Shown here piece by piece: positions 29,039 through 54,373 of a stretch of 64,000 nucleotides of DNA. The stretch is from the IMG/VR virus record IMGVR_UViG_642973577_000001, positions 1 through 64,000 of that record; one strand, given 5' to 3'. Made by a program: the position numbers and the translations under genes. The notes beneath the pieces were generated by a model. That model had not been told where the DNA came from and searched no databases. It saw only the letters and a program-made list of their open reading frames with translations. The DNA is from a virus (Duplodnaviria > Caudoviricetes). The stretch's first letter is position 1. Every line of letters starts with the position of its first letter.

Positions 29039-29482
29039 ATGTTCAAGAACGCAGAGCGCGATCCGCTGGCTGTCCCCATGCCAGCTCAGCGCAGCAGTGT
29101 GGGTCCCCGGCGTCAGTCCACGGCTGCACGCCTGGCCGCTATCCAGCAGGTCGAGTCGCGTCCGCAGCCACGTACGGCGGCGGTTCAGGCTCCGCCAGTG
29201 CCTCCGGTGATGGCCCTGCCATCCAAGGTCGCTCGTCGGCTCCAGTTCGAGGCCCAGGAGTTCCTGGCCCAGGATCACGGGTGCGACGACCGCTCAGAGC
29301 TTCTGTACCGGGCGGAACGTCATGCCCGTACGCAAACCTCCACGTGGACGCCGGAGGCCTCTCAGAGGGCCACGCAGGCGTTCGTTGCGAGGGTGGCAGA
29401 GCTGATCCCCAACCGCCCGACCAAGGTGGCGGCTGCTCAGTCCCCGGCGTTCGAGGACTTTGACGATCAGCTCCTCTACTAG
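29039..29482 (+). CDS. Putative virion/head-associated protein
   Basis: Late motif, AGGAGG RBS, several R/K-x-A motifs, acidic C-terminus. Confidence 0.65.
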   Translation: MFKNAERDPLAVPMPAQRSSVGPRRQSTAARLAAIQQVESRPQPRTAAVQAPPVPPVMALPSKVARRLQFEAQEFLAQDHGCDDRSELLYRAERHARTQTSTWTPEASQRATQAFVARVAELIPNRPTKVAAAQSPAFEDFDDQLLY

Positions 29483-29490
29483 GAGGGGTA

Positions 29491-29721
29491 GTGGCGAAGT
29501 GGAAGAACCCGCTGGCAAGCGCGAAGCCGACTACGGTCGGCCTCTTCCTGCTGGTGTGTTTGTGGGCGCTGTTCCAATGGCGGGACCCAACGCCACCACC
29601 GGTTCTGGACCAGATCCTGGTGGCGTCCTTCGGCGTCTGGTTCGCCAATGAGGCGATCGACAAGAAGAACAGTGGCAAGAAGGACGACGAGTCCGCCGAC
29701 GACGACGATGGAGGCGGGTGA
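29491..29721 (+). CDS. Two-TM membrane protein (holin-like)
   Basis: Two hydrophobic helices and a charged C-terminal tail. Confidence 0.55.
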   Translation: MAKWKNPLASAKPTTVGLFLLVCLWALFQWRDPTPPPVLDQILVASFGVWFANEAIDKKNSGKKDDESADDDDGGG

Positions 29722-29726
29722 CGCCC

Positions 29727-29865
29727 ATGTGGCAGGACACCCTGAACCTGGTTAGCGGGTTCTGGTCCCCTTACACCCCCCCTGAGCTTCTTCTCGGGCA
29801 TTGGGGTGCATCACCTCTACTGCAAGTACTGGCGCGACCGCGACGACGACGAGAAGGATTGCTGA
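29727..29865 (+). pseudogene. Small membrane protein gene split by a +1 shift at a C7 run
   Basis: Coding bias moves to the +1 frame at 29776-29782. Confidence 0.5.
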
Positions 29866-30303
29866 GTGTTCACCAAGAAGGAAGACGGCACCTACCGGTT
29901 CAGCACCCGGTTCTGGGTCTACACCACGATCGCGACCCTGATCATCTGCTGGATCGGCTGGCGCACGCAGGACACGGCCAACCGCGTCGAGAACCAGGTG
30001 ACCACCAACACCGCGTTCGCGACAGCCACCAACGACTGCCTCCAGCAGGTCATCGACGTGCTCACCACCCGCGTGGGTTACAGCGACGAGATCGCCAAGC
30101 TGGAGGCGAGGCGCGACGGTGCGCTGGACAAGCTGATCGCCGACCTGGCGACCAGTCAGGGCGATCCGGGCCTGAACATGACGGCGCTCAACGAGTACCG
30201 GGCCACCATCGCCGACGTCAACACCGACCAGGATGAGCTGGCTACCCAGCGCGAGAAGAACCAGTACCCGAACTGCACGCAGCTGCCTCCGCAGCTGCCG
30301 TAG
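29866..30303 (+). CDS. Membrane-anchored coiled-coil protein (spanin-like)
   Basis: N-terminal TM, coiled coil, two Cys. Confidence 0.6.
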   Translation: MFTKKEDGTYRFSTRFWVYTTIATLIICWIGWRTQDTANRVENQVTTNTAFATATNDCLQQVIDVLTTRVGYSDEIAKLEARRDGALDKLIADLATSQGDPGLNMTALNEYRATIADVNTDQDELATQREKNQYPNCTQLPPQLP

Positions 30304-30337
30304 CCTGAGGGCACACCTACCGAAGGAGATCACCACC

Positions 30338-33660: not shown

Positions 33661-36600
33661 ATGAGTGACTTCGGACTGTTCGAGGCGGATACAGACGCCC
33701 AGCAGGCACCGCAGCGGCAGCAGCGTCAGGCAGCCAACAAGCTGGCCAACGCCATCTACGACGTCCGGGACCAGTACGGGCCGTTCCTGATGGGCAGCAC
33801 CGGCAAGGACGAGTTCGAGGATCGCTGGCACCACGCCAAGACCGACATCCGCAAGACCGTCGAGGCCGCTGGCGCGTTCCCCAACACCGGAGTCATGCGC
33901 CGCATCCACAACGCGATGAAGCGCGAGTTCGTGGCCACTCTCGGCGACGACAACAGCGACGACCCGACCAAGAAGCCGAAGGACGACGGCGACAAGGCCC
34001 GGACGATCAACGACTCGCAGTACAAGAAGGTCCAGGACGGCGATCCGAGCGTCAAGGACGACGTGAAGACCAACACCGGAGACGGCTCTGACGCCGAAGG
34101 CCGTAATCCGTCGTCGACCACTGGCCCGCAGGGTGACCCCCGTGACTCCGGCCCGGAGCGCAAGAAGAGTAGCCGTCGCCACGCTGCGGGCGAGAACGGT
34201 GACGAGGGTCCTTTCGGGTCTGACCCCAGGAAGTGCAGCCATGAGAACAGTGAACCGCTGGGCAATGGCCAGAAGGAGTGCTACGACTGCGGCGAGATCG
34301 TCAAGACCGGACGCCGCTACGCCGAGAACTTCGACGGCGACCTGGTGCCCAAGGGCAACTTCGACGCCTACCTGGACTCGGTGGACAACGGCGGACCGGA
34401 GAAGGTCCAGCGCAACTTCACCGACGGCGACGACAGCGGCGAGGACAAGCCGTCCAGCCGCGAGGCCCGTCGGCTGGCCGTGGACCTGTACAAGGACTTC
34501 GCCGAGGCCAACGGCCTGCGCGAGGCCAAGCTGTCGACGCTGGACCACTACGCCGACACCGGCATCGACGACTCCACCTACTTCATGCTCGCGAACCTCA
34601 TCCGCCAGGCGGACGAGAACTGCGACTGCGACGATGACGAGGACACCGACGGTCCTGGCGGCTCGGACAGCGACAGCGACGGTCCGCCGAAGGGTGCCGC
34701 CGAGAAGGGTGGCGAGTCGTCGTCGGATGACGACAGCGAGGACGACGGTGGCTCGGACAGCGATTCGGGTGACGACGACGCACCAGAGTCCGACGGAGGT
34801 TCGGATGATGGTGGCGAGAACCCGTTCGCGGAGAGCGACTCGGATTCGGATGCGCCTTCGGAGGACGCCGGTCCTTCGGCGGACGATGCGGGACCGGCTG
34901 GTGATCCTCAGGCTCCGCCTGGCCCACCTGACCTCGGTCCTGAGGACGGCGGCGATCCTGCTGGGCTGGAAGCCCCGCCCGGACCGCCGTCGCTGGACGA
35001 CGCGCCGCCGCTCGCGCAGGACGACTTCTCGGGTGTCGACGAGCTGACCCCCGACGCCGCTGGCCAGCTGCCACCGGACACCGAGCTGGTGCAGGTCGAG
35101 CAGATCGAGGACGCCCTGGGCCTGCCTCCGGGCACCCTGGAGCAGCTGCTGGCCGACAGCATCGCGCACGGCGGTCCGCCACAGCCACACGGCGCAGGAC
35201 CCGTCGCGAGCCGCAGGTACGTGGCTTTCGGAGAAGGGGCTGACCCGGCTGCCGGGGGTCAGGCTGTAGCTCCGGCTGCCCCCGCACCGGCTGCCGCGCC
35301 CGCTCCGGCCATGCCAGGCCCGGACGACGGCGCTCTCCTGGACCAGGCCAGCCAGGCTGTGACCAACCTGGTGGACCAGAAGACCCAGGAGTACCAGACC
35401 ATCATCGACCCGCTGCAGCAGGCGCTGCAGGCGATTCAGTTCGCCCAGCAGGTCGAGCAGGCAGCCAACCCGCTGGACGTCACCCCGCCTGAGGGCACGG
35501 TCGACGTCAACCCGCAGTCTGCGGTCGACCCGGCTGCCGAGGCCCAGGCCGCGAGCATCCAGGCACCGGCACCACAGACGTCGGCTGGTCCGCCGCCTCC
35601 GGGACCGGGAGGAATGCCCGCGCCTGCTCCGGCACCAGCCGGTGGTGACAGCGGTGGCTCCAGCGAGTCCGACAGCGGCGAGAAGAAGGAGTCGTCGCGT
35701 CAGCTCGATCTGCGCCGCCACGCCTTCAAGCTGGCCCAGTACTGGGGTCTGAGCGAGCAGGGCTACCAGACGGTCCTGGCCGCGATGAGCCGCAAGCACT
35801 ACCAGCACGTGGCCGAGGCCATCCAGACGCTGCCGCCGGAGCACCGGATGGGCATCGCCGCCAGCCTGGCCGACATGTTCAGCACCGATAACGTGCGGTT
35901 CAACACCGGCCAGTTCATGGCCAGCGCGGGCGTGCCGATGGGCGCGGATGCCATCCACATGGCCAAGAGCACTGACGACTTCCATACCTACAACGATCGC
36001 GGTGGAGAACCCGGCGACTACGAGCGCAACAACCGGGGCTATAGCGACGTCGGTAACGGTATGGTCCAGGACTGGGAGACCGGCGAGGTCTACCCGCATC
36101 CGGGCAAGAAGGCCAGGGTGGCTGCCAACCCCGCCGACCGTGCCGGTGACCGCTGGCGCGACGGCAAGGACCGGGCCTCGGCGGACGCCGAGGAGTACGA
36201 CACCGACCCAGACAACTGGGAGGAGCGCGAGGCCGCACGCCTCGGACTCCGGCAGGGGAGCCGCCGCCCTTTCGTCATTAGGTCGAGGACGACGGGAGGT
36301 GGACGCACGGCTGGAGAGACCTGGAAGCCGCCGGGTGGGGGTCAAGCTCTCGATGCGTTCGAGTTCCCCGGCCAGGGCGAGAAGGCCGAGTTCAGCGACA
36401 ACATGAAGATCAACGACCTGCCTGGCCAGAAGGCCAAGTCGGCGGGCGTGGTCGAGGACTTCCAGCGGTTCGACAAGCGTCGCGCCGAGCAGGGTCTCAA
36501 CGTCGGCGGTGAGGGCGAGGTCGACTCCTTCCTGCAGAACAAGAAGGTCGGCCCACGCGCCCAGGACAAGCTGCACGAGGAGATCGGTCTACAGCCGCAC

Positions 36601-37551
36601 CAGAAGGCCGCGAACTTCCAGCCCAAGGTCGCCGGGTGGGAGTTCGACGACCACCTCAACGGCTACGTGAGCCACATCCGCCAGGCGTTCCACTGCCCGT
36701 GCGGCCAGGCCCACAACCCGCCGTCGCACGGCATGTGCCGCTGCGGCAAGCTTTGGTACACCTACGCCATCGGCACCGGCCAGCACCTGGCCAACGGCAA
36801 CGAGGCGGAGATGTTCCTGGCCCGCGAGATCCCCGTGCGGGAGAACGTGATCATGGCCAACCGCCAGTTCCGGTCGGCGGAGGAGTACAACAACGCCAGC
36901 GGCAACGGCCCGTACCAGGACTACCCGGAGGACGTCGAGTTCTACGACGACGACGAGATCGACCAGTCGACGCCGCACGCGCCAGGTGAGACCGACATGG
37001 ACACCCGCCGGTCGGCTGCAACCAGTCCTCCTTTCACTGGTGATCACGGTGGGTCAGAAGCCAGTGAATATGGAGTCAGCCATCCTGCCCCTCGTGAGAA
37101 GTGCGGCGAGTGCGGCTTCTATCACTACCCCAAGGAGGGGCACGGTTCTCCCATGAATCGTCGTCGTTCGGCGATCGAGCACGAGGACCCGGATCACACC
37201 GACCCCGCGTTCGGTGGCTGGCCGTTCGAGGAGCGCAAGCCCAAGCGCAACGACGGCAAGCGCACGGGCGCGAGCTACGGCGAGGACGACCACAACGTCG
37301 TCGACCGCAACGGCGAGAAGTTCTGCAGCGCCTGTGACGCCATGCTCTGGGACCCGAACGTCCACCACTGCCCTGCCAAGCAGGCTTCGCGGTCGTTCTT
37401 CGCAGACTGGACCAAGTTCACCGACGACGACAACGCCGGGTACGAGGAAGGCCCGAAGGAGCCACCGTCCACCACGCCAGGCAAGCAGCCGCCCAAGGAC
37501 TGGGCCAAGCGCGACGACAAGGGCAACTGGGTCAAGCCCCAGTTCAAGTAG
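33661..37551 (+). CDS. Large acidic low-complexity virion (head) polyprotein
   Basis: 1296 aa, upstream of portal, repeated R/K/H-x-A motifs, several Zn-ribbon modules. Confidence 0.75.
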   Translation: MSDFGLFEADTDAQQAPQRQQRQAANKLANAIYDVRDQYGPFLMGSTGKDEFEDRWHHAKTDIRKTVEAAGAFPNTGVMRRIHNAMKREFVATLGDDNSDDPTKKPKDDGDKARTINDSQYKKVQDGDPSVKDDVKTNTGDGSDAEGRNPSSTTGPQGDPRDSGPERKKSSRRHAAGENGDEGPFGSDPRKCSHENSEPLGNGQKECYDCGEIVKTGRRYAENFDGDLVPKGNFDAYLDSVDNGGPEKVQRNFTDGDDSGEDKPSSREARRLAVDLYKDFAEANGLREAKLSTLDHYADTGIDDSTYFMLANLIRQADENCDCDDDEDTDGPGGSDSDSDGPPKGAAEKGGESSSDDDSEDDGGSDSDSGDDDAPESDGGSDDGGENPFAESDSDSDAPSEDAGPSADDAGPAGDPQAPPGPPDLGPEDGGDPAGLEAPPGPPSLDDAPPLAQDDFSGVDELTPDAAGQLPPDTELVQVEQIEDALGLPPGTLEQLLADSIAHGGPPQPHGAGPVASRRYVAFGEGADPAAGGQAVAPAAPAPAAAPAPAMPGPDDGALLDQASQAVTNLVDQKTQEYQTIIDPLQQALQAIQFAQQVEQAANPLDVTPPEGTVDVNPQSAVDPAAEAQAASIQAPAPQTSAGPPPPGPGGMPAPAPAPAGGDSGGSSESDSGEKKESSRQLDLRRHAFKLAQYWGLSEQGYQTVLAAMSRKHYQHVAEAIQTLPPEHRMGIAASLADMFSTDNVRFNTGQFMASAGVPMGADAIHMAKSTDDFHTYNDRGGEPGDYERNNRGYSDVGNGMVQDWETGEVYPHPGKKARVAANPADRAGDRWRDGKDRASADAEEYDTDPDNWEEREAARLGLRQGSRRPFVIRSRTTGGGRTAGETWKPPGGGQALDAFEFPGQGEKAEFSDNMKINDLPGQKAKSAGVVEDFQRFDKRRAEQGLNVGGEGEVDSFLQNKKVGPRAQDKLHEEIGLQPHQKAANFQPKVAGWEFDDHLNGYVSHIRQAFHCPCGQAHNPPSHGMCRCGKLWYTYAIGTGQHLANGNEAEMFLAREIPVRENVIMANRQFRSAEEYNNASGNGPYQDYPEDVEFYDDDEIDQSTPHAPGETDMDTRRSAATSPPFTGDHGGSEASEYGVSHPAPREKCGECGFYHYPKEGHGSPMNRRRSAIEHEDPDHTDPAFGGWPFEERKPKRNDGKRTGASYGEDDHNVVDRNGEKFCSACDAMLWDPNVHHCPAKQASRSFFADWTKFTDDDNAGYEEGPKEPPSTTPGKQPPKDWAKRDDKGNWVKPQFK

Positions 37552-37584: not shown

Positions 37585-37947
37585 ATGGCAAGTGCCGACC
37601 TCTGCTTCGGGTGCAAGGCGTTCAAGGAGATCGCCTACACCGAGGCTGGAACTAACCGCACCTTCTGCCAGCCGTGCGCGCTCCAGCTTCCTCCGACCTC
37701 GGAGGAGCTGGCGCTGCTGTTCATCTCGATCACGAACCCGTTCAAGATCGGCGATCGAGTGGAAGCGCGCACGGCGGGCCAGGTCTATGACGGCATCGGC
37801 ACGGTCGACGACATCAGCACCCAGATCATCAACGGAGGCACGCCGGTCTACCCGAGCTTCCACGTGGTGCTGGAGACCAAGGAACACGACCTGGCACCTG
37901 ACGCTGCCTGGTACACCGAGATCTGCCTGAGGAAGGTTGACGCATGA
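37585..37947 (+). CDS. Hypothetical protein with Zn ribbon
   Basis: CxxC...CxxC; GAGG RBS. Confidence 0.75.
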   Translation: MASADLCFGCKAFKEIAYTEAGTNRTFCQPCALQLPPTSEELALLFISITNPFKIGDRVEARTAGQVYDGIGTVDDISTQIINGGTPVYPSFHVVLETKEHDLAPDAAWYTEICLRKVDA

Positions 37948-41156: not shown

Positions 41157-41864
41157 GTGGCCGACGTACGTTTCACCAGTGTCATGCCCGTCGAGTTGAT
41201 CGACACCAACTTCTCCGACGCCCGCGTGTGCATCGCGGCTCGGACGTCAACCGCAGGAGCTGGCGCTGATGACGCCGAGCGGTTCGGCCTGATCAACGCG
41301 CTGATGCGCGACCGTCACGGCACTCCGTTCGAGCACATGAACGTCACGGTCCGGGTCACCGCACCGATCTTCGTCTGGCGCGAGCACCATCGTCACCGGG
41401 CGGGGTTCAGCTACAACGAGGAGTCGGGCCGCTACAAGCAGCTCGATCCGGTGTTCTACATCCCGTCGGTCGGGCGAGGCATCGCCAAGGTCGAGGGGAC
41501 CAAGAGCATGGACTACGTGCTCGCCATGGGAACCGGCGAGCAGCGCCGTATGGTCGACAGCGCCACGCACCAGGTGTGCGTGCTCGCCTATGAGGCCTAC
41601 GAGCGCCAGCTGGAGGGAGGCATCGTGCGCGAAGTCGCTCGCATGATCCTGCCCGTCAGCATCATGAGCACCTGCATCGTCACGATGAACGCCCGGTCGC
41701 TGATGGCCTTCCTCAGCCTCCGCCAGCGTCACGACGACGCCCTGTTCCCGAGCAAGCCCCAGTGGGAGATCAACCAGGTGGCCGACCAGTACGAGTCGAT
41801 CCTGGCCCAGTACGCGCCGATGACGCACCGGGCCTTCGTGCAGAACCGCCGAGTGGCACCCTAA
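41157..41864 (+). CDS. thyX: Flavin-dependent thymidylate synthase
   Basis: HGTPFEH, RHR..FSYNEESGRY, NARSL..FLSLR, QWEI. Confidence 0.95.
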   Translation: MADVRFTSVMPVELIDTNFSDARVCIAARTSTAGAGADDAERFGLINALMRDRHGTPFEHMNVTVRVTAPIFVWREHHRHRAGFSYNEESGRYKQLDPVFYIPSVGRGIAKVEGTKSMDYVLAMGTGEQRRMVDSATHQVCVLAYEAYERQLEGGIVREVARMILPVSIMSTCIVTMNARSLMAFLSLRQRHDDALFPSKPQWEINQVADQYESILAQYAPMTHRAFVQNRRVAP

Positions 41865-42145: not shown

Positions 42146-42201
42146 TGGTGGAGCGTGTGGGGCGCTGTGATCCCGTGGGCGACCGCAAGCGGATCGAAGC
42201 C

Positions 42202-42711
42202 ATGAAGATCAAGGACGCCAGCGCCGAGCAGTCCAAGAAGACCGGCGGCATGGTCGCGCTCTACCCGCGTCGTCAGGACCTGGAGAACCTGGTCATCGAC
42301 GACCCCAAGGCCGAGCCGATCGACGACCTGCACATGACAGTGATCTTCCTCGGCGAGGACGTCACCGGGCAGGACCCTACAGAGCTGATCAGTCAGCTCG
42401 ACTACATGGCGCAGAACTACCAGCCGATCGAGGCCAAGGTGTTCGCCCACGCGGCGTTCAACCCGACCGGCGACGAGCCGTGCGCGGTCTACCTGGTCGG
42501 CGACAACATCGACATCGTGGACTTCTACCAGGACATGAAGAAGTTCGTCGAGGACCGCTACCCCGGCTCCAAGGAGCAGCACCCGGTGTATACTCCACAT
42601 ATTACAGCGGGCTACGGTATCCCCATCTCAAAACTGCAGTTCACGGGGGAGATTACTCTCGAACGCATCGGTCTCCGGTGGCAAGGCGAGGAACACGACT
42701 GGGACCTGTAA
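42202..42711 (+). CDS. 2H phosphoesterase (2'-5' RNA ligase/Acb1-like)
   Basis: Two HxT motifs, LHMTV and PHITA; alternative start at 42145. Confidence 0.8.
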   Translation: MKIKDASAEQSKKTGGMVALYPRRQDLENLVIDDPKAEPIDDLHMTVIFLGEDVTGQDPTELISQLDYMAQNYQPIEAKVFAHAAFNPTGDEPCAVYLVGDNIDIVDFYQDMKKFVEDRYPGSKEQHPVYTPHITAGYGIPISKLQFTGEITLERIGLRWQGEEHDWDL

Positions 42712-46100: not shown

Positions 46101-46664
46101 TGGGAGCAGTCCAAGGACGTCGTGAAGGAGCACTACAGCGACGGCATCGAGGACGTGACCGAGGTGCCCGACGAGAGCTACCTGACCAAGGACCTGGAGC
46201 CGGAGCGCAAGAAGTGGGCTGAGGGTGCCGTGGGCATCCAGCGCGCCGGTAGCGGACCGCGCCGGTACGTGGAGCCGGAGGTCGTCAGCGTGCGTGGACC
46301 GCGTAAGCAGACGGTCGAGGCCGCGTTCGATCCCGCCGACGACTTCGACCCGCTGGCACCGCGCACCGCTGCGAGCTTCCTGGACGAGGAGCCAGGTGCT
46401 CCGATCGACATCGTGGCGCAGTTCCAGGCCGCGAACGCCGATCTGATGTCGGCCAACAGCGGACCGGCCAAGACCCAGTACGACGACTTCTCGGACTCGC
46501 CCGCCTTCAAGAAGGCCATGCAGCGGACCGCCGGTCGCCAGTACTCGCTGGCCGAGCAGGCTGCGCTGGTGGCCGAGGGCAAGAAGGGCGGCGCACGCAA
46601 CCTGGACCAGCTGGACCTGCGTGGCACCCACTACGAGGCCGAGCACAGCGTTGGCCTGTGGTAA
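43197..46664 (+). CDS. Large head-associated polyprotein with SWIM-like Zn finger
   Basis: HCGCEW...LCSH; repeated R/K/H-x-A motifs; two ANPAA amphipathic repeats. Confidence 0.75.
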   Translation: MQHVYTDDYGYGQVVESKVTRGRTEYRVAGPDFDVWMPATKVAFAPVDRSNSVDLPYDPAPQFGVGPLTESTIQPIHEIDADERTSPADSQTFENRSRDEGDERGEPGPNPDLFAKSAALGDYPRGAGGIEAGPDEAHAHWMDQNQGQAWEHESPYYQGGDGPSQDYMDHHGTEGWLPEDEDPLAAAMAHEDSGHDPGDHERMNADYWRGQDAELNRFGSYHEADVLNTDVERTPFEPDYMIVNDTDDDYLRDVDVQEDERETTGPEGIVHFAGRIMHANPAAALAVPLARGLATGLAGGAAERVMGGGSNDMAAPPQGGEEQGGAPGNPVTDLGNKAKEQLTKEDPLPLPDLGYGWGDMTGKMGSYRPAGLDERYADITASVDPMVAQFRNDPAAFIERVGHSQSEGLNPRIAQYGEMVEADEMLRTAAWADVRAKAKRLRAEGRVHVKDVDYDRIYATVQGDHGTYETMIKKGGAYGGNGGQSITHWHCGCEWGKWAFARRLTFVGRLCSHGYAAYQEMQSAHVKGKPRRQRKNPRNASVHEANPAALLAPLVMRALPSLAGGAIGEHLSDDEGGEGGGGMMGAISPASAILGSTHYAGEDETTQDWKVKGTGEAKSALEDIRDWAETPQEDDFGNMENRVEEIRDAVERAREQGVDADQLVASLRRQAAPGDDPFAPGSPLGGQPPAQDPTGGGLQNPAAPRPPGGSAAPGQIGPFPAPQSVADQQRAPETATPLGELLGAPPPSAPAPSTQAQSPTAGPGTGNSEGIQGPGIPGNPGAPAESVYKDWYGDPGADADTGTTDQSSGSTGGGGGGGGAATPGTGDSATPDVALDAASGGEASAPGSAEATTDAATNPATDEQQDTANTEGTGTGAPDPMSSDTGSSMGGFDMSQIGDTVSGISDAVSSGVGAATDIASSIGDMMSSFTASRQASLEADPEWIKLAYPDGAPDHKPFNGSGGTQKVDWEQSKDVVKEHYSDGIEDVTEVPDESYLTKDLEPERKKWAEGAVGIQRAGSGPRRYVEPEVVSVRGPRKQTVEAAFDPADDFDPLAPRTAASFLDEEPGAPIDIVAQFQAANADLMSANSGPAKTQYDDFSDSPAFKKAMQRTAGRQYSLAEQAALVAEGKKGGARNLDQLDLRGTHYEAEHSVGLW

Positions 46665-46699: not shown

Positions 46700-49600
46700 G
46701 TGAGCACCACACGTGAGCTGGTGGTGGGTACGGAGAACGTCATCCGTACCCCGTCCAAGCAGGCGATCCGCAAGAAGATCGGCAAGAGCCACACCCTGCC
46801 TGGCTTCCAGATCAAGCCCGGTTACCTGTACACGGTGGTTCGCGCCATCTCCGCACGGGTCAACCAGAACTTCGACGGCTGGCCGTCAAACGAGCTGCGC
46901 GAGGCCGCGCATACGTTCGTCGGCAAGCCGGTGTTCGTCAACCACGAGAACTACGACCCGAATGAGGCGCGTGGTGTTGTGGTTGCTGCGCGCTACATCG
47001 AGAACGGGCGCGACAAGTACATCGAGGTCGTCCAGGAGATCGACGCCGTGAGCTTCCCCAAGCTCGCGCACGAGATCAAGACGGGTGGACTCGATAGCGT
47101 CTCCATGGGAGCAGAGGCCGGGTTTACCATCTGCTCCGCCTGCGGCAACAAGGCGCAGGACATGGAGGACATGTGCTACCACGTGCTCTTCAAGAAGGGC
47201 GAGACGGTCAACGTCCGCAACAAGAAGACCGGCAAGGTGGAGCAGAAGCTGGTCTACGAGAGCTGCCACAAGCTCTCGTTCTTCGAGCTGAGCTACGTCT
47301 TCGACCCCGCAGACGAGACGGCTGTGGCGTCCAAGGTCATCGTCGGCAAGCGGCAGCACCAGCACGTCGCGGGCCAGTGCGGTCCAGGTGACACCGACTG
47401 CGCTGCCACCTTCCCGGACCCACGCGGGCTGCCCGAGACGGCCTACCCGTCCGGTGGTGGAGGTGGAGCTGCAGCGGGCACGCCAGCGGTCGACACGAGC
47501 GCGATCGAGGGCCAGCCAGGCGGCGGCGGATCGCCCGGAGCCGACGGCATCATGGACAGCTCGCGAGGGCTGTACGACACGATCAAGCAGTACCACGACG
47601 GCGAGATCGGCGGGTACCGCGAGGACAGCTACGGCGAGCACGCCAACGGTGCGCTGGACGTCATGACGAGCGACCCGGCCACGGTCGAGCGCGTCAAGGC
47701 TGACGCCTTCGCCGCCGGTTCGCCGTACGTGCTCTGGAACCAGACGCAGTGGAACGCCGACGGCACCAGCAGCCCGATGGAGGACCGGGGAGACCCGACC
47801 CAGAACCACATGGACCACGTGCACACCGCGCCGATCGGCAACAAGGCCGCACGCAAGGCCTTCATCGCCAAGATCGCCGAGTACGTGCCGGAGAACAGCC
47901 AGAAGACCCAGCGCCCCGGCACCCTGCCGACCTACACCAAGGCGCATGCATTCTTCGACCAGCTGGGAGCACCGCACGACAAGGGCACCGCTGGCGTGCT
48001 CGACTACGGCGCTGGCCTGGGCCACAGCGGCAAGTGGGGACACACCTACGAGCCGCACCCGCAGACCGGTTTCGAGCCGACCTACACCAAGGCCGAGGAC
48101 GTGCCGGAGGGCGCATATCACCGGGTCACGAACCTGAACGTGCTGAACGTGGTGCCGCCGGAGATCCGCCACCAGATCGTGGACGGCATCGGTCGGTCGC
48201 TGGCACCTGGTGGCCACGCCATCATCACCACCCGTGGCCTCAAGGAGGTCCAGCAGGCCAAGAACGCGGTGCCTGCCGACAACGGCGACTTCGGCGCGGT
48301 ACGGGTTCGCCCCGACACCCCGCACGAGACCTACCAGAAGGGCTTCACGCCCAAGGAGCTGCACCAGTACGTGTCCGAGCGGCTGGGACCGGAGTACACG
48401 GTCAAGCCCCTCAAGCTCGGACCAGCGGGCGTTCACGTCGTCCGCAACGGAGGAGACCAGCTGATGACAGCTTTCAAGCAGGAAGTGCGTGCGCACATCA
48501 TGAAGAAGGCCTGGGGCGAGATCGAGGCTCCGCAGGCCGTCGACACCCTGCGCGAAGAGGGGTCCGCGCCGGAGGACGACAACGACGACTTCCACCACTA
48601 CGTCGACAGCCCGCAGGAGCTGTCGATGCCCGACCTGTCTCAGGCCAACCAGCTCGACCGCGAGCAGGCCGCAGGCGAGGCCCAGGCCGGTCCGATGAAC
48701 CCGGAGGCCATGGGCAACCCCAACGGCGGCGGCATCCCCGGCCCTGCCGAGGGTGGACCGCCTCCGGGCGCACAGCCACCGGGTGGTGGCCAGCAGTACA
48801 TGACGCTCCAGATCCCGATCCCCGGATCGGGAGCTGCCCCTGGCGGCACTCCGCCTCCGGCTGTTCCGATGCAGTCGTTCGCGGGCAAGGGTGCCGTCTC
48901 GGGCCGCACGTTGGCTTGGATGGAGCGTTACTTCGGCCACAGGGTCGCCAACTGGCAGGACGCAATCGTCGCTGGCAGGGACCTCACGCCGGAGGAGAAG
49001 GCTGACTTCAACCGGGAGGCAGCCCTGTGGACCCTGGAAAACCGGGTCGCAGAATCTGGAAGCAGTAGGAACACCACGAGAGGAACCGCCAACATGGCAC
49101 GCAGCACCTTGGCATCGCGCCGGAAGACGGCGGGCACCCGGCACTTCGCCGAGGGTCCGCTCGTGGACACGGGCGACCAGTCGCGCAACGACCAGGGCGA
49201 GCAGGAAGAGGCGTTCATCACCGAGACGCCGCCCGAGGTCTCCGACACCCTGCCCGACGACGACACGTCGAACATCTCGAACACCGAGGGCAACCTGGTG
49301 GCCGACGCCGAGTACGCCCGCAGCCTGACCTCCAAGCTCGCGCAGCAGCGCGCCGCCCTGGAGGCCACCGCTCGCGAGTACGCCCGCGTGGCCGGTCGCA
49401 AGTTCACCGCCGACGAGTACGCGGGTGGCCCGGTGGCCACCGAGGTCGATCCGACCGTGCAGACCGAGGCTGGCGAGAAGCTGACCGGAGACGACTTCGA
49501 CAGCGCCGCCACCCCGGAGCCGGGTATCGACACCAGCCCCGCCGGTCCGGGCACGACCACCCTGCCGATCGAGTCGAGCCTCAAGGCGTTCCAGACCTTC

Positions 49601-50335
49601 GACCGCTGGCTGACCGCTTCGACGGGCAAGTCGAGCCGCGAGCACAGCGAGAAGAACATCAAGCGCGCCGCGCAGCAGTTCGCCGCCTACAACAAGATCA
49701 AGGTGGCAGCTCTGTATCCGGCACTGGGAATCGTGCTTCGACAGGCCCGAAAGGTTGAGGCCGAGAAGAAGGGACAGCCCGTGCGCAAGAAGGCAGTGGA
49801 TCTTGAGACCGCCGCACCGGACGAGCGCGTCTCCGTTCCGGCACCGGTCTCCAACACCACCGACGCCGAGGCTCAGGCGAGCCAGTACGACGAGGAGGGC
49901 TTCGGTAACAACGCCGGAGACGACATCTCGGAGTACGACGGCTCGACCGGTCAGAACTTCGCTCCGGGTCAGGCACCCAACAAGAGCGCCAAGAAGGCCG
50001 ACGGCATTCTGGCCATCCGCTGCGCGGAGGCCATGATCGCCGCCGGTCTCGAACCGAACACCCGCGAGCGGAAGTACCAGCTCGCTGCGCAGTTCGAGAA
50101 GATGTCACGCGGTCTGATCATGGACCGCACCGCGCTCGCTGAGCGGTTCGCCATGGTGCGCCAGGCGGACAACCAGCGGTACGCGCAGAAGGTCGCCAGC
50201 GGAAGGACTCGCGGGACCGCATCGCCAGTACCACCAGGCATGGGCCACGGCGGAGGCGGAAACACCGCGCCTCGCACGGCCTCGCGTCGGGTGGCGGCAA
50301 ACGATCCCGTCAACGACAGCCTGATGTTCGGCTAA
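46700..50335 (+). CDS. Prohead protease polyprotein (protease, putative peptidase, SAM-MTase-like domain, scaffold)
   Basis: VFVNH, SVSMG, FFELSYVFDPAD; EHANGALD...NHMDHVH; VLDYGAGLG...NVLNV...YQKGF. Confidence 0.75.
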   Translation: MSTTRELVVGTENVIRTPSKQAIRKKIGKSHTLPGFQIKPGYLYTVVRAISARVNQNFDGWPSNELREAAHTFVGKPVFVNHENYDPNEARGVVVAARYIENGRDKYIEVVQEIDAVSFPKLAHEIKTGGLDSVSMGAEAGFTICSACGNKAQDMEDMCYHVLFKKGETVNVRNKKTGKVEQKLVYESCHKLSFFELSYVFDPADETAVASKVIVGKRQHQHVAGQCGPGDTDCAATFPDPRGLPETAYPSGGGGGAAAGTPAVDTSAIEGQPGGGGSPGADGIMDSSRGLYDTIKQYHDGEIGGYREDSYGEHANGALDVMTSDPATVERVKADAFAAGSPYVLWNQTQWNADGTSSPMEDRGDPTQNHMDHVHTAPIGNKAARKAFIAKIAEYVPENSQKTQRPGTLPTYTKAHAFFDQLGAPHDKGTAGVLDYGAGLGHSGKWGHTYEPHPQTGFEPTYTKAEDVPEGAYHRVTNLNVLNVVPPEIRHQIVDGIGRSLAPGGHAIITTRGLKEVQQAKNAVPADNGDFGAVRVRPDTPHETYQKGFTPKELHQYVSERLGPEYTVKPLKLGPAGVHVVRNGGDQLMTAFKQEVRAHIMKKAWGEIEAPQAVDTLREEGSAPEDDNDDFHHYVDSPQELSMPDLSQANQLDREQAAGEAQAGPMNPEAMGNPNGGGIPGPAEGGPPPGAQPPGGGQQYMTLQIPIPGSGAAPGGTPPPAVPMQSFAGKGAVSGRTLAWMERYFGHRVANWQDAIVAGRDLTPEEKADFNREAALWTLENRVAESGSSRNTTRGTANMARSTLASRRKTAGTRHFAEGPLVDTGDQSRNDQGEQEEAFITETPPEVSDTLPDDDTSNISNTEGNLVADAEYARSLTSKLAQQRAALEATAREYARVAGRKFTADEYAGGPVATEVDPTVQTEAGEKLTGDDFDSAATPEPGIDTSPAGPGTTTLPIESSLKAFQTFDRWLTASTGKSSREHSEKNIKRAAQQFAAYNKIKVAALYPALGIVLRQARKVEAEKKGQPVRKKAVDLETAAPDERVSVPAPVSNTTDAEAQASQYDEEGFGNNAGDDISEYDGSTGQNFAPGQAPNKSAKKADGILAIRCAEAMIAAGLEPNTRERKYQLAAQFEKMSRGLIMDRTALAERFAMVRQADNQRYAQKVASGRTRGTASPVPPGMGHGGGGNTAPRTASRRVAANDPVNDSLMFG
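49032..49068 (+). promoter_or_regulatory. Internal putative late promoter
   Basis: CCCTG-N22-GAAGCAGTAG followed by GAGAGGA RBS. Confidence 0.6.
49094..50335 (+). CDS. Nested in-frame scaffolding protein
   Basis: Internal promoter motif, RBS and in-frame ATG (MARSTL). Confidence 0.6.
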   Translation: MARSTLASRRKTAGTRHFAEGPLVDTGDQSRNDQGEQEEAFITETPPEVSDTLPDDDTSNISNTEGNLVADAEYARSLTSKLAQQRAALEATAREYARVAGRKFTADEYAGGPVATEVDPTVQTEAGEKLTGDDFDSAATPEPGIDTSPAGPGTTTLPIESSLKAFQTFDRWLTASTGKSSREHSEKNIKRAAQQFAAYNKIKVAALYPALGIVLRQARKVEAEKKGQPVRKKAVDLETAAPDERVSVPAPVSNTTDAEAQASQYDEEGFGNNAGDDISEYDGSTGQNFAPGQAPNKSAKKADGILAIRCAEAMIAAGLEPNTRERKYQLAAQFEKMSRGLIMDRTALAERFAMVRQADNQRYAQKVASGRTRGTASPVPPGMGHGGGGNTAPRTASRRVAANDPVNDSLMFG

Positions 50336-50375: not shown

Positions 50376-50921
50376 GTGTTCAGGCCACCTCTTGCGAACC
50401 CAGCGCAGAAGCGGACCCTGCGTCCGCTCTACGCGAACCACCAGGCCACCCCCTGGGGCGGGTTCCTGGACCCCGACCTGGATGTCGACTTCGACATCTA
50501 CCCCGGCACCGTGATGCAGCGTGTGTACGGAGAAGTGTTCGCGCCCTACACGGGTGAAGCGGGCACCAGCCCAGTCGGCCTGTCGGCCCTGTTCGTCAAC
50601 ACCGGCGGATACCAGGGTCACCAGGTCAACGAGGTCACCGGCAGCGGCACCGGACTGTTCACCATCTGGATCGGTGGACCGGACGCCATGTTCGAGATCC
50701 TCGCTCCGGCGTTCGACACCGAGGCCGACTGGCCGGAGGTCACCGGACCGGGCAAGTACATGCTGACGGCCAACGCCCAGGGTCAGCTGACCCCGGAGGG
50801 CGTGAACCCCGGCAACGCCATCGCCACGCTGATCGACATCCCGTCCACGGACAAGATCATCATCAGCCTGGACCGCTACGACATCGCCGCTTCGGGCGGC
50901 GGGCTGGCAGGAGGCAGCTAA
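50376..50921 (+). CDS. Putative capsid decoration/cement protein
   Basis: Between scaffold and MCP; AAAGGAG RBS. Confidence 0.65.
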   Translation: MFRPPLANPAQKRTLRPLYANHQATPWGGFLDPDLDVDFDIYPGTVMQRVYGEVFAPYTGEAGTSPVGLSALFVNTGGYQGHQVNEVTGSGTGLFTIWIGGPDAMFEILAPAFDTEADWPEVTGPGKYMLTANAQGQLTPEGVNPGNAIATLIDIPSTDKIIISLDRYDIAASGGGLAGGS

Positions 50922-50924
50922 CCC

Positions 50925-51932
50925 ATGACTCTCCCAACAGCAGTCGGTAGCGGCCTGGGCCGCTTCGCAAAGTCGTCGGACGATTACGTCGCCGACATCG
51001 TGCAGGCCAAGCGCCGCCTCGGCGGTCGCAAGCTGAGCACCCCGGAGAAGCAGACCAAGCTCGCTCACATCCTGAGCGACAAGGTGGGCGGCATCCAGCG
51101 CCTGGGCCAGAGCATGATCGGCCCGATCCAGCTGCAGCTGCGCTACCAGGGCATTCTCCGCAACGTCCTCCTGGAGGACACGCTGACGCCGGGTATCCCG
51201 ATCGAGTACGACGTGCTCGACGACCTCGGCCAGGCGTACATGCTGCACGGCAACGAGGGTGAAGTGAAGATCACCCCGTTCGAGGGCAAGCGTGTGCCGG
51301 TGCAGCTGTTCCGCATCGCGTCGTTCCCGCAGATCAAGAAGGAAGACCTGTACTACCTCCGCAGCAACATCGTGGAGTACACGCAGGACATGACCAAGCA
51401 GGCCATCATGCGCCAGGAGGACTCGCGCCTCGTGACGCTGCTGGAGGCTGCAGCGGTCAGCTACCGTGTCGTGGACAGCTCGGCTGTGCCGGGTCCCGGC
51501 GGCGGCGCTCTTCCGAACGAGATCACGATCGCGGGCACGCACCTCATGCCCGACGATCTGTACACCGCCGTCACCTACACCGACCAGCGTCAGCTGGACT
51601 CGTCGCGCCTGCTGGCCAACCCGCAGGAATACCGCGACCTGTACCGGTGGGACATCAACACCACCGGTTGGGCCTTCAAGGACTCGGTGGTCGCTGGTGA
51701 GCGGATCGTGCAGTTCGGCGAGTTCCAGATCGGCAAGTCGATCATCATCCCGCGTGGCACTGTCTACCTGACCCCGGAGCCGCAGTTCCTCGGCGTGTTC
51801 CCGGTCATGTACTCCCTCGACGTCGAGGAGAACAACATGGTGGAGCAGTTCCACAAGGGCTGGGTCATGGACGAGCTGGTCGGCATGGCCATCCTCAACC
51901 CGCGTGGTATCGTGATCCTGCGCAAGGCCTAG
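50925..51932 (+). CDS. Major capsid protein
   Basis: 335 aa, position, C-terminal GMAILNPRGIV, terminator downstream. Confidence 0.85.
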   Translation: MTLPTAVGSGLGRFAKSSDDYVADIVQAKRRLGGRKLSTPEKQTKLAHILSDKVGGIQRLGQSMIGPIQLQLRYQGILRNVLLEDTLTPGIPIEYDVLDDLGQAYMLHGNEGEVKITPFEGKRVPVQLFRIASFPQIKKEDLYYLRSNIVEYTQDMTKQAIMRQEDSRLVTLLEAAAVSYRVVDSSAVPGPGGGALPNEITIAGTHLMPDDLYTAVTYTDQRQLDSSRLLANPQEYRDLYRWDINTTGWAFKDSVVAGERIVQFGEFQIGKSIIIPRGTVYLTPEPQFLGVFPVMYSLDVEENNMVEQFHKGWVMDELVGMAILNPRGIVILRKA

Positions 51933-51962
51933 TGCCTGCGTCGGCTTACCTGCCAAGCTACG

Positions 51963-52000
51963 AGAAGCCCCCTCTGGTGATCCCGGAGGGGGTTTCTTGT
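51963..52000 (+). terminator. Intrinsic terminator
   Basis: GAAGCCCCCTCTGG...CCGGAGGGGGTTTC plus T-rich tail. Confidence 0.8.
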
Positions 52001-52034
52001 TGCGGTGTGAGTTCTAGCCTGCTAGAATAGAATC
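52000..52034 (+). promoter_or_regulatory. SigA-type TTCTAG promoter, leaderless
   Basis: TTGCGG-N17-TAGAAT-N6-ATG. Confidence 0.85.
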
Positions 52035-52283
52035 ATGACCACGAAGACCGATTCCCAGATCCGCCAGGCCATTGCCGAAGGCCGCATCGTCCCCGCCCAG
52101 GCCCGCGTCATCCGCGCTCTGATCGAGACCGTCCCCGTCGCCAACTTCGACACCGCCGTCCTGGCGGGCTGCTGGCTGCACACCGACAACATCTCGCCCC
52201 ACCAGATCCGCACCAACTACCGCGCTGGTGGCCTGACCTACGATTACGTCAACGAGGTCATCGACAAGGCCACGGCCTCATGA
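52035..52283 (+). CDS. Hypothetical protein
   Basis: Leaderless start. Confidence 0.75.
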   Translation: MTTKTDSQIRQAIAEGRIVPAQARVIRALIETVPVANFDTAVLAGCWLHTDNISPHQIRTNYRAGGLTYDYVNEVIDKATAS

Positions 52284-52441
52284 TCACCTACGAGTACAAC
52301 GGCGTCGAGTTCACCCGCGACGAGCTGGAGACGGCCATCACCGACGAGGCCAACACGCTCGACGGGTTCGACGAGGAGTCGTTCGACTTCGGCGATTGGC
52401 TCTCCGACGCGATCGGTACCGGCCACGTCACCGTCCTGTAG
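52280..52441 (+). CDS. Small highly acidic protein
   Basis: ATGA overlap; D/E-rich 53 aa; not in the ORF track. Confidence 0.65.
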   Translation: MITYEYNGVEFTRDELETAITDEANTLDGFDEESFDFGDWLSDAIGTGHVTVL

Positions 52442-52486
52442 TAGGCCAGGTGGGGACCCTAAATGAGTAGAGGAGGGTCCCCACCT
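52434..52486 (+). promoter_or_regulatory. Putative late promoter within an RBS-sequestering hairpin
   Basis: TCCTG-N22-AAATGAGTAG; 13-bp inverted repeat 52448-52460/52474-52486. Confidence 0.65.
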
Positions 52487-54373
52487 ATGCGCATTACTTC
52501 CGCCCGCGAGCAGCACTCGATGTACTCGCCATGGCGCACGGCCTACGACATCCAGTCGCCCGCTCCCGGCGCGCCGGTCCAGACCAAGCGCGGGCCGTCC
52601 GCACCGTCGCTGGACCCGACCAACGACCCGATGGGCAACCTGAACAAGCGCCCGTACGACTACGGGACGATGGTCGACAACCTGGTCAGCCACTACCACG
52701 GCTCCACCGACGACGAGAAGAAGTCGGGTCGGCTTTGGTACAAGGCCGCGCACGACCTGTTCCACACCTTCGCGAAGAAGAACGACATCAGCCCCGAGCG
52801 GGCCGTGGCCTACGGTGCCGCGTTCAGCCCGCTGACCGACTGGGGCGACAACGTGCACCACGCCCAGAAGTTCATGCTGGGCTACACCCCGGACAAGCCT
52901 GGCTTCAACAAGCACGACTGGCAGCAGGCCCACATCCACCCCGAGGCCCTGGACGCCTTCCAGCAGCAGCACGGTCGGATGCCGACCGAGAGCGACGAGG
53001 ACCTGCACGCGCTGGCCGACATGCACCAGGGCAAGTGGATGGGCAGCCAGGCGGCTCAGGCCAAGGGGCAGCTGGGCAAGCACGACATCGCCAACAACCC
53101 CGAGGCCCGACAGGAATGGATGGAGAACATCCAGCACAAGGGCATGGAAGCCACGCTGGCCGACCACGTGCAGCAGCGGACCGCGCACGAGAAGTCGGCG
53201 AAGGGGCGCAAGGGCGAGCCGTTCAACCCCGCGTTCGGCATGCGCGCCTCCGGCATCAACACCCTGGGTGGCAACATCCAGAAGGCCAAGGACCTCTACC
53301 ACTCGCCCGACGACATCGCGCACATGTTCAAGGTGCTCGGCGGTCCGAAGATCAGCCACTTCACCGACAACATCCTCGACGACACCCCGATCGACGAAGA
53401 GGGGTACTACCAGCACCCCAACGGCGACTGGACCCAGAACAAGGACCTCGGCGGCACGATCGACAGCCACCACATGCGCGCCGCTGGCATGGCGCACGGC
53501 CAGTGGGAGCGTAAGCCCTACGCCGTGAGCAACCCGAGCACAGACCACGAGTACGACGTGTACAACCGTGGCCTGTACGAGGCCACCAAGCGCATCAACG
53601 ACGGCCAGGCCGACCCGACCAAGCACATCACCCCGAAGCAGCTCCAGGCCATCGTGTGGCTCAAGCACAAGAACGACAAGGACTACTTCGAGCGGCAGCG
53701 CAACCCGGAGACGGGCCAGAAGATCACCCACGAGTCCGAGCTGGGTGGAGCGGGCCGTCCTGAGGACTGGCAGTTCGCCGAGAAGAGCTACAAGTCCAAG
53801 GGCAAGGGTCTCGGCAAGGGACCAGGCCGCGCCGCTGCTCTGGAGGAGCAGGATCTGTTCTCGATGCCGCCTCTGTGGCGTCAGGTGTTCCTGCACCACC
53901 AGCCACAGGAGTGGACCGATCTGCTGGACGCCTGGGTGGAGCACCACGCACCCGGACCGGGCCAGCCCGACGGCAACGCAGGAGATCCACGCACGCAGGA
54001 CCCACACGCCCTCCAGGGCCAGGACCCGCATCTGGCCCGTGTCGCCCGCGCCCACATGGCCGCATACGACGACTTCGACTCGATCATGCAGGGGCAGAGC
54101 TTCCCGCACCAGGTGGAGGAAGGCCCGCACGACAGCCCGTGGAAGGGCCAGGCAGCCGACGAGCTGGCTGGTACCTGCGCGTACTGCCACAGCGGCCCTG
54201 GCGAGCTGTGCGACCCGCACTGCCCGACCAACCACAGCGACAGCCCGCGTGACTGGGCCATGGACGCCAAGGCCCTGGGCGGCGCGCCGTACAAGGCTGT
54301 CGACGACACCATGCACCGGCTCAACAGCGTTCGCTCGCTGTTGGCGTCGGTCGACGAGATGCTGGAGGGCTAG
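52487..54373 (+). CDS. Putative virion-packaged protein with HhH-glycosylase-like (DUF7178-like) domain
   Basis: WY...AAFSP..W..N, GPKI..F..NI, TIDxH, QAIVW; short leader ending PWRTA. Confidence 0.6.
   Translation: MRITSAREQHSMYSPWRTAYDIQSPAPGAPVQTKRGPSAPSLDPTNDPMGNLNKRPYDYGTMVDNLVSHYHGSTDDEKKSGRLWYKAAHDLFHTFAKKNDISPERAVAYGAAFSPLTDWGDNVHHAQKFMLGYTPDKPGFNKHDWQQAHIHPEALDAFQQQHGRMPTESDEDLHALADMHQGKWMGSQAAQAKGQLGKHDIANNPEARQEWMENIQHKGMEATLADHVQQRTAHEKSAKGRKGEPFNPAFGMRASGINTLGGNIQKAKDLYHSPDDIAHMFKVLGGPKISHFTDNILDDTPIDEEGYYQHPNGDWTQNKDLGGTIDSHHMRAAGMAHGQWERKPYAVSNPSTDHEYDVYNRGLYEATKRINDGQADPTKHITPKQLQAIVWLKHKNDKDYFERQRNPETGQKITHESELGGAGRPEDWQFAEKSYKSKGKGLGKGPGRAAALEEQDLFSMPPLWRQVFLHHQPQEWTDLLDAWVEHHAPGPGQPDGNAGDPRTQDPHALQGQDPHLARVARAHMAAYDDFDSIMQGQSFPHQVEEGPHDSPWKGQAADELAGTCAYCHSGPGELCDPHCPTNHSDSPRDWAMDAKALGGAPYKAVDDTMHRLNSVRSLLASVDEMLEG

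Follow-up and report, generated by a model that had tools for sequence, protein, structure and literature searches.

The window analyzed here, 64,000 nucleotides of an IMG/VR virus record (IMGVR_UViG_642973577_000001), is the left 64 kb of the 164,602-bp genome of a subcluster C2 (Myrnavirus) mycobacteriophage; positions 46700 to 52000 share 90% DNA identity with Mycobacterium phage Phabba (Myrnavirus, subcluster C2) and ∼80% with many Bixzunavirus (C1) phages. The G+C content of the window is 66%, and nearly all genes, including those for the giant, portal, cement, and capsid proteins described below, lie on the plus strand. The head module comprises, in this order, the genes for protein A (33661..37551), the portal protein (37944), the thymidylate synthase ThyX, a 2H-phosphoesterase-like protein, protein B (43197..46664), protein C (46700..50335), the cement protein (50376), the major capsid protein (MCP; 50925..51932, phrog_2522), and protein D (52463..54373). 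Protein A (1,296 amino acids [aa], phrog_2922) is a mosaic giant, B (1,155 aa) has relatives annotated as LysM-like, and C (1,211 aa) combines a protease, variable modules, and a scaffold-like C-terminal part. These three giants contain a large excess of the tripeptide [RKH]-x-A, and this motif, mainly with Arg or Lys and more weakly with His as the basic residue, is probably the signal at which the assemblin-fold protease that the phage itself encodes in gene 46700 cleaves its substrates. Proteins A, B, C, and D and the MCP were aligned between the window and seven phages for which the head modules were compared, namely, Phabba, ScoobyDoobyDoo, Bigswole, Sauce, Tonenili, Gordonia phage SCentae, and Rhodococcus phage E3. 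The order portal, B, C, cement, MCP is the same in all seven, with the protease gene beside the scaffold and capsid genes.

A sequence-only reading of the window had listed 22 basic-x-Ala strings in late proteins and proposed that the 46700 protease cuts after the Ala, releasing enzymes and peptides inside the capsid for injection. All 22 strings are present, with one occurrence each, starting at residues 172, 218, 819, 882, 989, 1116, and 1168 of A, residues 41, 427, 598, 668, 1056, and 1110 of B, and residues 222, 391, 602, 814, 1030, and 1196 of C, along with PWRTAY at residue 23 of the 52463 open reading frame (ORF; protein D), MRSAS at residue 314 of the 30941 ORF, and GRFAK at residue 12 of the MCP. 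Compared with the expectation from composition, [RKH]xA occurs 33 times in A (17.8 expected), 23 times in B (15.1), and 34 times in C (19.1). The pooled count of 90 versus 52.4 (z = 5.7) was reached by none of 1,000 within-protein shuffles. Motifs that rearrange these residues serve as controls and stay flat in the three proteins together (Ax[RKH], 47 versus 52.1; [RKH]A, 42 versus 52.1; [RKH]xxA, 59 versus 52.2), so local clustering of Ala and Arg is excluded, and with it an artifact of local composition. Also flat are [DE]xA (58 versus 68.7), [RKH]xG (41 versus 49.5), the variant with Ser in place of the Ala, and the motifs of the T4 and phiKZ type, [SAG]xE (71 versus 75.1) and [LI]xE (20 versus 17.9). 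In a blind scan of all 400 a-x-b residue pairs, RxA ranks first in the three giants (44 versus 23.0) and KxA ranks sixth (30 versus 18.2). The inclusion of His in the motif held up only in part: HxA is slightly in excess in A, B, and C (16 versus about 10.6 to 10.8, z = 1.7; 1.14- to 1.31-fold family-wide) and is the weakest member. Among individual tripeptides, RTA, RVA, and RQA occur 6, 6, and 7 times in the giants, against about 1.1 to 1.25 expected for each, and are at expectation in the other proteins. A motif acting at the DNA level was also considered and is ruled out by the codons at the R[TVQS]A sites, which vary.

The excess is confined to the head giants. Among the 100 proteins of at least 150 aa encoded in the 164,602-bp genome, C ranks first for [RKH]xA, A second, B fifth, and the MCP sixth; all remaining proteins pooled contain 403 occurrences versus 412.4 expected (ratio 0.98). 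The excess over background is thus found in A, B, and C and is absent from the pooled remainder of the genome, and the difference between late and early proteins is restricted to these three late giants: the other late proteins contain 70 occurrences (78.9 expected), and the early proteins contain 93 (97.7 expected). Two proteins in which strings had been listed, those encoded at 52463 (11 versus 10.4) and 30941 (5 versus 5.1), are not enriched. The 636-aa protein D nonetheless has one N-terminal R-x-A (52535..52543) that is kept in mycobacteriophage relatives; the 30941 protein, which carries the MRSAS site, had a single relative in the fetched loci, aligned to residues 93 to 319 only. In sum, A, B, and C have a genuine [RKH]xA excess that chance falls far short of explaining, and the MCP shows a trend in this direction. 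An early 160-aa protein (15479..15961, phrog_10415) takes third place genome-wide, with 8 occurrences versus 3.7 expected (z = 2.6), an excess compatible with chance among 100 proteins.

A pattern picked out post hoc in Ala- and Arg-rich proteins of a GC-rich phage has to be considered all the same, given that the motif was chosen after reading the same proteins and that ∼58% of its occurrences are expected from composition alone. This explanation is very improbable: besides the shuffles, the flat same-residue controls, the genome remainder of 0.98, and the blind 400-pair scans that put RxA first, the excess recurs in the three giants of all eight phages (ratios of 1.41 to 1.76, reached by none of 400 shuffles in each), in three large protein families, and in the AT-rich phage G. 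In this phage (30% G+C), head proteins gp19 (10 versus 3.7), gp7 (18 versus 9.9), and gp21 (8 versus 4.2) are all enriched, and because an AT-rich genome shows the excess and the codons vary, neither G+C content nor a DNA-level effect accounts for it.

The likely agent of cleavage is the N-terminal domain of C (residues 1 to 224, 46700..47371), delimited by alignment and structural modeling. Residues 58 to 213 match PHROG 18299, annotated as head maturation protease (E = 9.1e-18). Sequence models otherwise say little about this domain: at E ≤ 1, Pfam returned only a zinc-ribbon fragment, S77-type models did not match, an NCBIfam scan of six proteins, this one included, gave no match, and a profile of the domain searched against Protein Data Bank (PDB) sequences recovered only the bL32 zinc ribbon and not 5jbl. 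The fold is considerably more informative. A model of residues 1 to 230, built with 14 relatives (predicted local distance difference test [pLDDT] of 79.7), matches best the T4 gp21 structure 5jbl_A (Z = 11.2, root mean square deviation [rmsd] of 3.5 Å, 131 aligned residues), followed by the varicella-zoster virus (VZV) protease 1vzv (Z = 11.0, rmsd of 2.5, 114 aligned) and the proteases of pseudorabies virus (PrV; 10.2), herpes simplex virus 2 (9.2), and human cytomegalovirus (8.4); entries for human cytomegalovirus, Kaposi's sarcoma-associated herpesvirus, and Epstein-Barr virus fall within 7.6 to 8.4. About 30 more herpesvirus protease entries score between 7.1 and 10.2, and unrelated MCE-domain chains score 6.6 or less. 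Foldseek returned the same order with weak E-values, with 5jbl_B at the top (E = 3.2e-3), and the nearest predicted viral structures in BFVD are those of Gordonia phage Pupper, phage G gp19 (second), Ralstonia phage phiRSL1, and Pseudomonas phage PaBG. Judged by this model, the N-terminal domain of C has the gp21/assemblin fold, a predicted seven-stranded barrel. His82 (46943..46945) and Ser135 (47102..47104), invariant in 15 and in 61 aligned relatives, are taken as the candidate catalytic residues. An insert with an invariant C-x2-C…C-x-H pattern (C145, C148, C159, and H161; 47132..47182) resembles the bL32 zinc ribbon. Translated searches (tblastn) with matches of ∼30% identity reach the prohead proteases of Erwinia and Dickeya jumbo phages.

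Two positions in C stand out as candidate sites. Directly behind the protease domain lies HVA|G (residues 222 to 224, 47363..47371; the bar marks the presumed cut), a candidate release site in a stretch, residues 219 to 230, modeled with pLDDT below 50. In 82 of 130 relatives, [RKH]xA is found with its P1 residue 12 to 24 positions after an invariant xDPAD, most often at +16 (31 proteins), whereas control motifs fall there in 11 to 35 of the 130; in some lineages of the family, [RK]-x-G ahead of a conserved YGE block takes its place. At the other end, RTA|S and RVA|ANDP (50273..50296), 17 and 12 residues from the C terminus, are candidate maturation sites. Among 120 relatives of at least 600 aa, 92 have the motif 8 to 25 residues from the C terminus, with a mode of 12 (controls, 4 to 47 of 120), and a conserved D-[SY]-x-x-F end follows it in the C family. 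Between these anchors, the scaffold-like part keeps motif positions in 62 to 92% of a 61-sequence alignment despite low flank identity (in C, positions 815, 1030, 1107, 1197, 1095, 988, 1164, 1014, 809, and 1192). For example, the two motifs of the KTA|GTR-HFA|EGP pair (49124..49150) are kept in 0.65 and 0.92 of 60 relatives. Herpesviruses also make a scaffold-only protein in excess from a nested in-frame gene; in C, Met601, which precedes KKA|WGE, is not kept in Phabba.

The stretch between protease and scaffold is variable. Residues 302 to 377 (47603..47830) resemble an LAS-type (H..D..HxH) peptidoglycan peptidase (9flh, E = 1.1e-4), and this stretch (GEH..D...HMDHVH) also matches the tape-measure proteins of many Gordonia, Mycobacterium, and Corynebacterium siphophages; on this sequence evidence, a cell-wall hydrolase module in a myovirus head protein would be unusual. 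A module weakly similar to S-adenosylmethionine-dependent methyltransferases follows (47975..48238; Methyltransf_23, E = 8.3e-4, below the Pfam cutoff), and Sauce and Tonenili have a different module in its place. The modules seen among relatives of A, B, and C include zinc fingers, LysM, NlpC/P60, and an intein, a variety that fits a set of exchangeable passengers.

The motif persists across the protein families to which the giants belong. A HMMER search with residues 1 to 230 of C retrieved 2,605 representative proteins at E ≤ 1e-3; most of the best 150 are 600 to 1,780 residues long, and the 131 of them with at least 500 residues are referred to here as the C family. In the parts of these 131 proteins beyond residue 240, RxA ranks first of 400 pairs (1,407 versus 728) and KxA ranks second (843 versus 451), with HxA at 1.16-fold. 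The A family, 55 proteins from a word-index search that cover 6 to 100% of A, has 845 RxA versus 426 expected (rank 2 of 400, after CxC), and the B family, 119 proteins found in the same way, has 1,393 versus 863 (1.6-fold; rank 7 of 400, after Cys and Trp pairs and GxG). Because shared ancestry inflates the family-wide z-scores, a point to be held against the motif, the ratios are the useful numbers. Across the families, [VLI]xA is not enriched (0.97 to 1.08), [SAG]xE stands at 0.85 to 0.97, and [LI]xE stands at 1.18 to 1.39, a level also attained by early proteins of the window (up to 1.40). In the distant relatives, conservation is higher for motif Ala residues than for Ala elsewhere (0.456 versus 0.319, P = 3e-4) at equal flank identity.

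The context of the motif in the C family is also nonrandom. Over 2,250 occurrences of [RK]xA, Arg is overrepresented at P4 (3.15-fold) and P5 (2.15-fold), Thr (2.5-fold) and Val (1.7-fold) are overrepresented at P2, such that RTA and KTA reach 4.6 to 4.8 times expectation, and P1′ is enriched in Ser (2.19-fold, the most), Ala, and Glu. Pro is depleted at P2 (0.20), P1′ (0.40), and P2′ (0.33), and acidic residues are depleted upstream. Separately, adjacent Arg-Ala (0.58 to 0.81 of expectation) and [RK]-x-Gly (0.59 to 0.70) are depleted in A, B, and C and in their families.

These features bear on an alternative in which selection maintains the motif for something other than cleavage, such as docking or targeting to the procapsid core, DNA contact, or recognition by another modifying enzyme. 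Enrichment demonstrates selection and not purpose, basic residues prevail and acidic ones are scarce upstream, as in nucleic acid-binding segments, and the surroundings of the sites are not obviously disordered. The avoidance of Pro at P2, P1′, and P2′, however, is what would be expected for a substrate bound in an extended form, the motif falls exactly at the two places where herpesvirus assemblins cut, it co-occurs with the protease family across Mycobacterium phages and the Bacillus-type host of phage G, and the sole experimental N terminus available, as far as the source gives it, follows an Ala. On balance, a noncleavage role is quite unlikely.

That N terminus belongs to the capsid protein of phage G. 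The MCP of the window begins with GSGLG-R-F-A|K-S-S-D-D-Y-V, in which RFA|K (50961..50969) is a candidate site; of 120 relatives, 96 have R-x-A at this position and 21 have R-x-S (117 of 120 together), with F, I, T, V, Y, and H alternating at P2. Phage G gp27 is a homolog of the MCP (6wkk, E = 8e-27), and Table 1 of the source gives it 282 residues and, by N-terminal sequencing, a mature form of 255 (PMC5646251). Read on the translated gene, this tabulated length places the cut at …EEGRVALA|QAMANP, with Ala27 as P1. Its counterpart in the MCP of the window is R59-L60-G61|Q62 (RLG|Q, 51099..51107), and RLG is kept in 119 of the 120 relatives, as is everything downstream of it. Because R-L-G|Q aligns with the phage G cut, the MCP may be cut at 61|62, with Gln62 as a mature start that the sequence-only reading had not listed, instead of, or in addition to, GRFA|K. 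The text of a cryo-electron microscopy study of three actinobacteriophage capsids (PMC7150772) contains neither "cleav" nor "protease," and the available part of a further phage G study (PMC12484599) gives no cleavage data.

In A, the motif coincides with the borders of modules that come and go between close phages. A 45-aa zinc-ribbon-like module that is absent in Phabba (34177..34323) is bounded, in the pairwise alignment, by RRHA|A (34177..34185) and RRYA|E (34315..34323). A 53-aa module (35956..36123) lies between HMA|K (35956..35964) and RVA|A (36115..36123): the window reads HMA|KSTDDF..(53 aa)..ARVA|ANP where Phabba has HLA|GNP without the module. Among the C1 phages, Bigswole and Sauce also have this module, flanked by QHVA|G and GRTA|G, and Tonenili lacks it. 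A third module, of 51 aa (37009..37173), is bounded by a duplicated RRSA (RRSA|ATS..RRRSA|IEHEDP) that is single in Phabba (RRSA|AIEHEDP), and Tonenili has a 61-aa module between duplicated APGKTAG flanks. The first and third of these modules each contain a C-x-x-C pair. Such pairs, together with the high rank of CxC and CxxC among enriched pairs of the A and C families, suggest that small zinc ribbons make up many of the swapped modules. Other sites recur between the phages as well. RTA|GETWK in A (36304..36312) is kept in five of the seven compared phages; in B, HYA|GED (44988..44996) keeps the motif in all seven at a flank identity of 0.27, and RTA|GRQY (46524..46532) is likewise kept in all seven. 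Searches of PDB sequences gave no match for A or B, and an ESM Atlas search gave no usable match for A. The record of Rhodococcus phage E3 labels the A homolog "structural protein"; this homolog (L004, 6625 to 9784) is annotated as a pseudogene-type misc_feature, yet the range translates without a stop.

The junctions were compared using pairwise indels between close phages in place of gap boundaries in an eight-way multiple sequence alignment, a test that proved saturated ([RKH]xA at 58/97, 50/73, and 27/45 boundaries, with a control higher in C). In 12 distinct indels of at least 40 aa (8 in A, 2 in B, and 2 in C, with repeats of one event collapsed), an [RKH]xA bond lies within 6 residues of 18 of the 24 junctions, versus 6.3 expected (binomial P = 7.5e-7), in a set that was picked by hand from A, B, and C at this length, without shorter events or those of D, which tempers the figure. 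Controls reach 1 to 12 of 24, the highest being [RKH]xxA, which reflects RRxA. The sequence-only reading had placed the motif at domain boundaries, and for module junctions this stands; it does not extend to the Pfam domains of relatives or to a disorder proxy, as described below.

A narrower interpretation is that the protease cuts only a few classical sites, after the protease domain, at the C-terminal tail, and at the MCP N terminus, and that the excess in A and B has another cause, such as short linkers kept by module-shuffling recombination, with A and B remaining largely intact or never being packaged. The strongest positional evidence does concern C and the MCP. Within the C family, the excess is ∼2.1-fold in the last 620 residues and only 1.33- to 1.44-fold in the variable middle, and RxA shows no excess in the protease domain; the duplicated RRSA…RRSA and APGKTAG…APGKTAG flanks are the expected remnants of short-repeat recombination, and the flanks of Pfam domains have no excess. 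Conversely, RxA is about twice the expectation in 42 distant A-family proteins (685 versus 348) and 1.6 times in the B family. Furthermore, the codons at the sites vary, and these proteins have fewer RA and [RK]xG than expected, which points to selection on the peptide rather than a history of repeats. Overall, restriction to the classical sites is unlikely. Since much of the enrichment in C lies in its C-terminal 620 residues, removal of the scaffold nevertheless fits better than the release of cargo that the sequence-only reading had proposed.

Several observations weigh against a general [RKH]-x-A cleavage code. Chance alone would yield about 52 of the 90 occurrences in A, B, and C, so that no individual site can be called. 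The reported phage G cut, as far as the source documents it, has Ala and not a basic residue at P3, with Arg at P5. The large indels of D lack motif flanks. Seven Pfam domains in relatives (L5 gp82-like, cytidylyltransferase-like, two zinc fingers, two LysM, and NlpC/P60) are flanked within 45 residues by no more motifs than a density of about 1 per 50 residues predicts, and the LysM domains, which sit in Gly/Pro-rich linkers, have no motif within 45 aa. Conservation of the basic residue does not significantly exceed that of basic residues outside the motif (0.435 versus 0.394, P = 0.17), and the flanks of the sites are no less conserved than others (0.322 versus 0.305). Nor are the surroundings more hydrophilic; the fraction of order-promoting residues, a crude composition proxy, is 0.236 versus 0.206 around other Ala residues (P = 0.017), a shift in the opposite direction. 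Finally, the literature searched, supplementary files aside, reports no cleavage for the source phage or its close relatives, no cleavage sites for the proteases of cluster C, E3-like, or phage G-like phages, and no protease with this specificity.

Weighing these points against the fold, the enrichment restricted to the head giants, the fixed positions, and the Ala at P1 of the phage G cut, we infer that the 46700 protease probably acts at the motif, as had been proposed. For the further proposal, that freed enzymes are injected, the LAS-like stretch of C, the LysM and NlpC/P60 modules of relatives, and the "structural protein" label on the E3 homolog of A are no more than hints. The preferred reading, cleavage at [RK(H)]-x-A, would work as follows. 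The gene 46700 product would be a protease-scaffold fusion built like herpesvirus pUL26, with an N-terminal serine protease, exchangeable modules, a long scaffold-like part, and a short conserved tail. Inside the procapsid, it would cut after a small residue, nearly always Ala, with Arg or Lys (sometimes His) required two residues upstream of the cut residue; Arg at P4 or P5, Thr or Val at P2, and Ser, Ala, or Gly at P1′ would be preferred, and Pro would be disfavored around the bond. Cleavage at HVA|G, after residue 224, would free the protease, and cuts at RTA|S and RVA|A, 12 to 17 residues from the end, would detach the scaffold from the shell. The scaffold part of C would be chopped into pieces, the capsid protein would be trimmed, and the giants A and B would be cut at their module joints. 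A broader version, in which a large clade of protease-scaffold fusions (2,605 clusters) follows a rule of cutting after Ala with a basic P3 and the signal marks the joints of swappable cassettes that are packaged and delivered, is put forward only tentatively.

The remaining genes of the head module are of different kinds. The portal protein (37944..40463, phrog_2833) is not enriched in the motif (4 versus 8.3 expected), and the cement, or minor capsid, protein (50376..50921) is identified by PF23968 (E = 2.5e-99). The ThyX gene (41157..41864; PF02511, E = 8e-43) lies within the head module, between the portal gene and giants B and C, a placement conserved in Bixzunavirus and Myrnavirus relatives. 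The adjacent gene (42145..42711) encodes a 188-aa protein that resembles 2H phosphoesterases and RNA ligases (phrog_2659). This protein also partially matches PHROG 18402, "head maturation protease" (profile positions 387 to 553 of 861); the label probably comes from fused members of that group and could mislead annotation.

If the preferred reading is correct, the gp21/assemblin fold would gain a new specificity in the basic-x-Ala code, and the shared fusion architecture, two key sites, and P1 would link capsid maturation in phages and herpesviruses at the sequence level. The mature forms of cluster C head proteins would become predictable, and the annotation of hundreds of genomes of cluster C and related actinobacteriophages, in which genes for proteins of 1,000 to 1,300 residues are now "hypothetical," would improve. 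Should pieces of A and B be packaged and ejected, a modular protein-delivery system would be defined, and under the tentative cassette version, swappable zinc fingers, cell-wall hydrolases, and methyltransferase-like modules would amount to plug-and-play cargo with a three-residue code.

The closest known systems are the head proteases of a few phages and the herpesvirus assemblins. Head-protease motifs of the T4 and phiKZ phages are of the (L/I)-x-E or (S/A/G)-x-E type, and to our knowledge, experimentally established codes are limited to a few phages (T4, phiKZ, and SPN3US), all with Glu at P1. The combination of a small P1 with a basic P3 is most likely new for this kind of enzyme. SPN3US gp245, as described in the accessible part of its source, cuts after A-X-E and prefers Ser at P1′ (PMC10052503). 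The phage of the window would share with T4 gp21, phiKZ gp175, and SPN3US gp245 the use of one head protease and one short motif across scaffold, capsid, and internal proteins. It would differ in P1, and it differs in the lack of any [SAG]xE or [LI]xE excess in A, B, and C and, from the T4 gp21 group, in the fusion of the protease to ∼1,000 further residues. Phage G offers a further comparison: between its gp19 protease and the protease domain of C, identity is 38.6%, gp27 is homologous to the MCP and, by the tabulated length, cut after Ala27, and the motif is enriched in gp19, gp7, and gp21. Unlike C, gp19 is a stand-alone protease of 300 residues, the reported cut has Ala at P3 according to the same table, and host and base composition differ.

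The herpesvirus assemblins belong to MEROPS family S21. They resemble C in the fold of the protease (Z = 11.0 for VZV) and in the order of protease, scaffold, and short C-terminal tail within one polypeptide. In pUL26, so far as the source consulted describes it, cleavage at the R site frees the protease, cleavage at the M site near the scaffold C terminus frees the scaffold from the capsid protein, and both sites have Ala at P1, as in YLQA-T and VQA-S of PrV (PMC4498786); the candidate sites of the C family, after the protease domain and near the C terminus, correspond to them in place and in P1, and Ser as the most enriched P1′ residue is a further likeness. The phage protein differs in that P3 of its motif is basic, not Val, Leu, or Ile; that its protease domain has no sequence-level match to any solved assemblin; that it contains extra modules and a zinc-ribbon insert, in which His161 looks like a zinc ligand, and has candidates for two members (His82 and Ser135) of a Ser-His-His triad; and that candidate sites are far more numerous and extend to other giant proteins. 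Despite these differences, in architecture and in its two anchor sites, the gene 46700 product is closer to herpesvirus pUL26 than to the head proteases of T4, phiKZ, and SPN3US.

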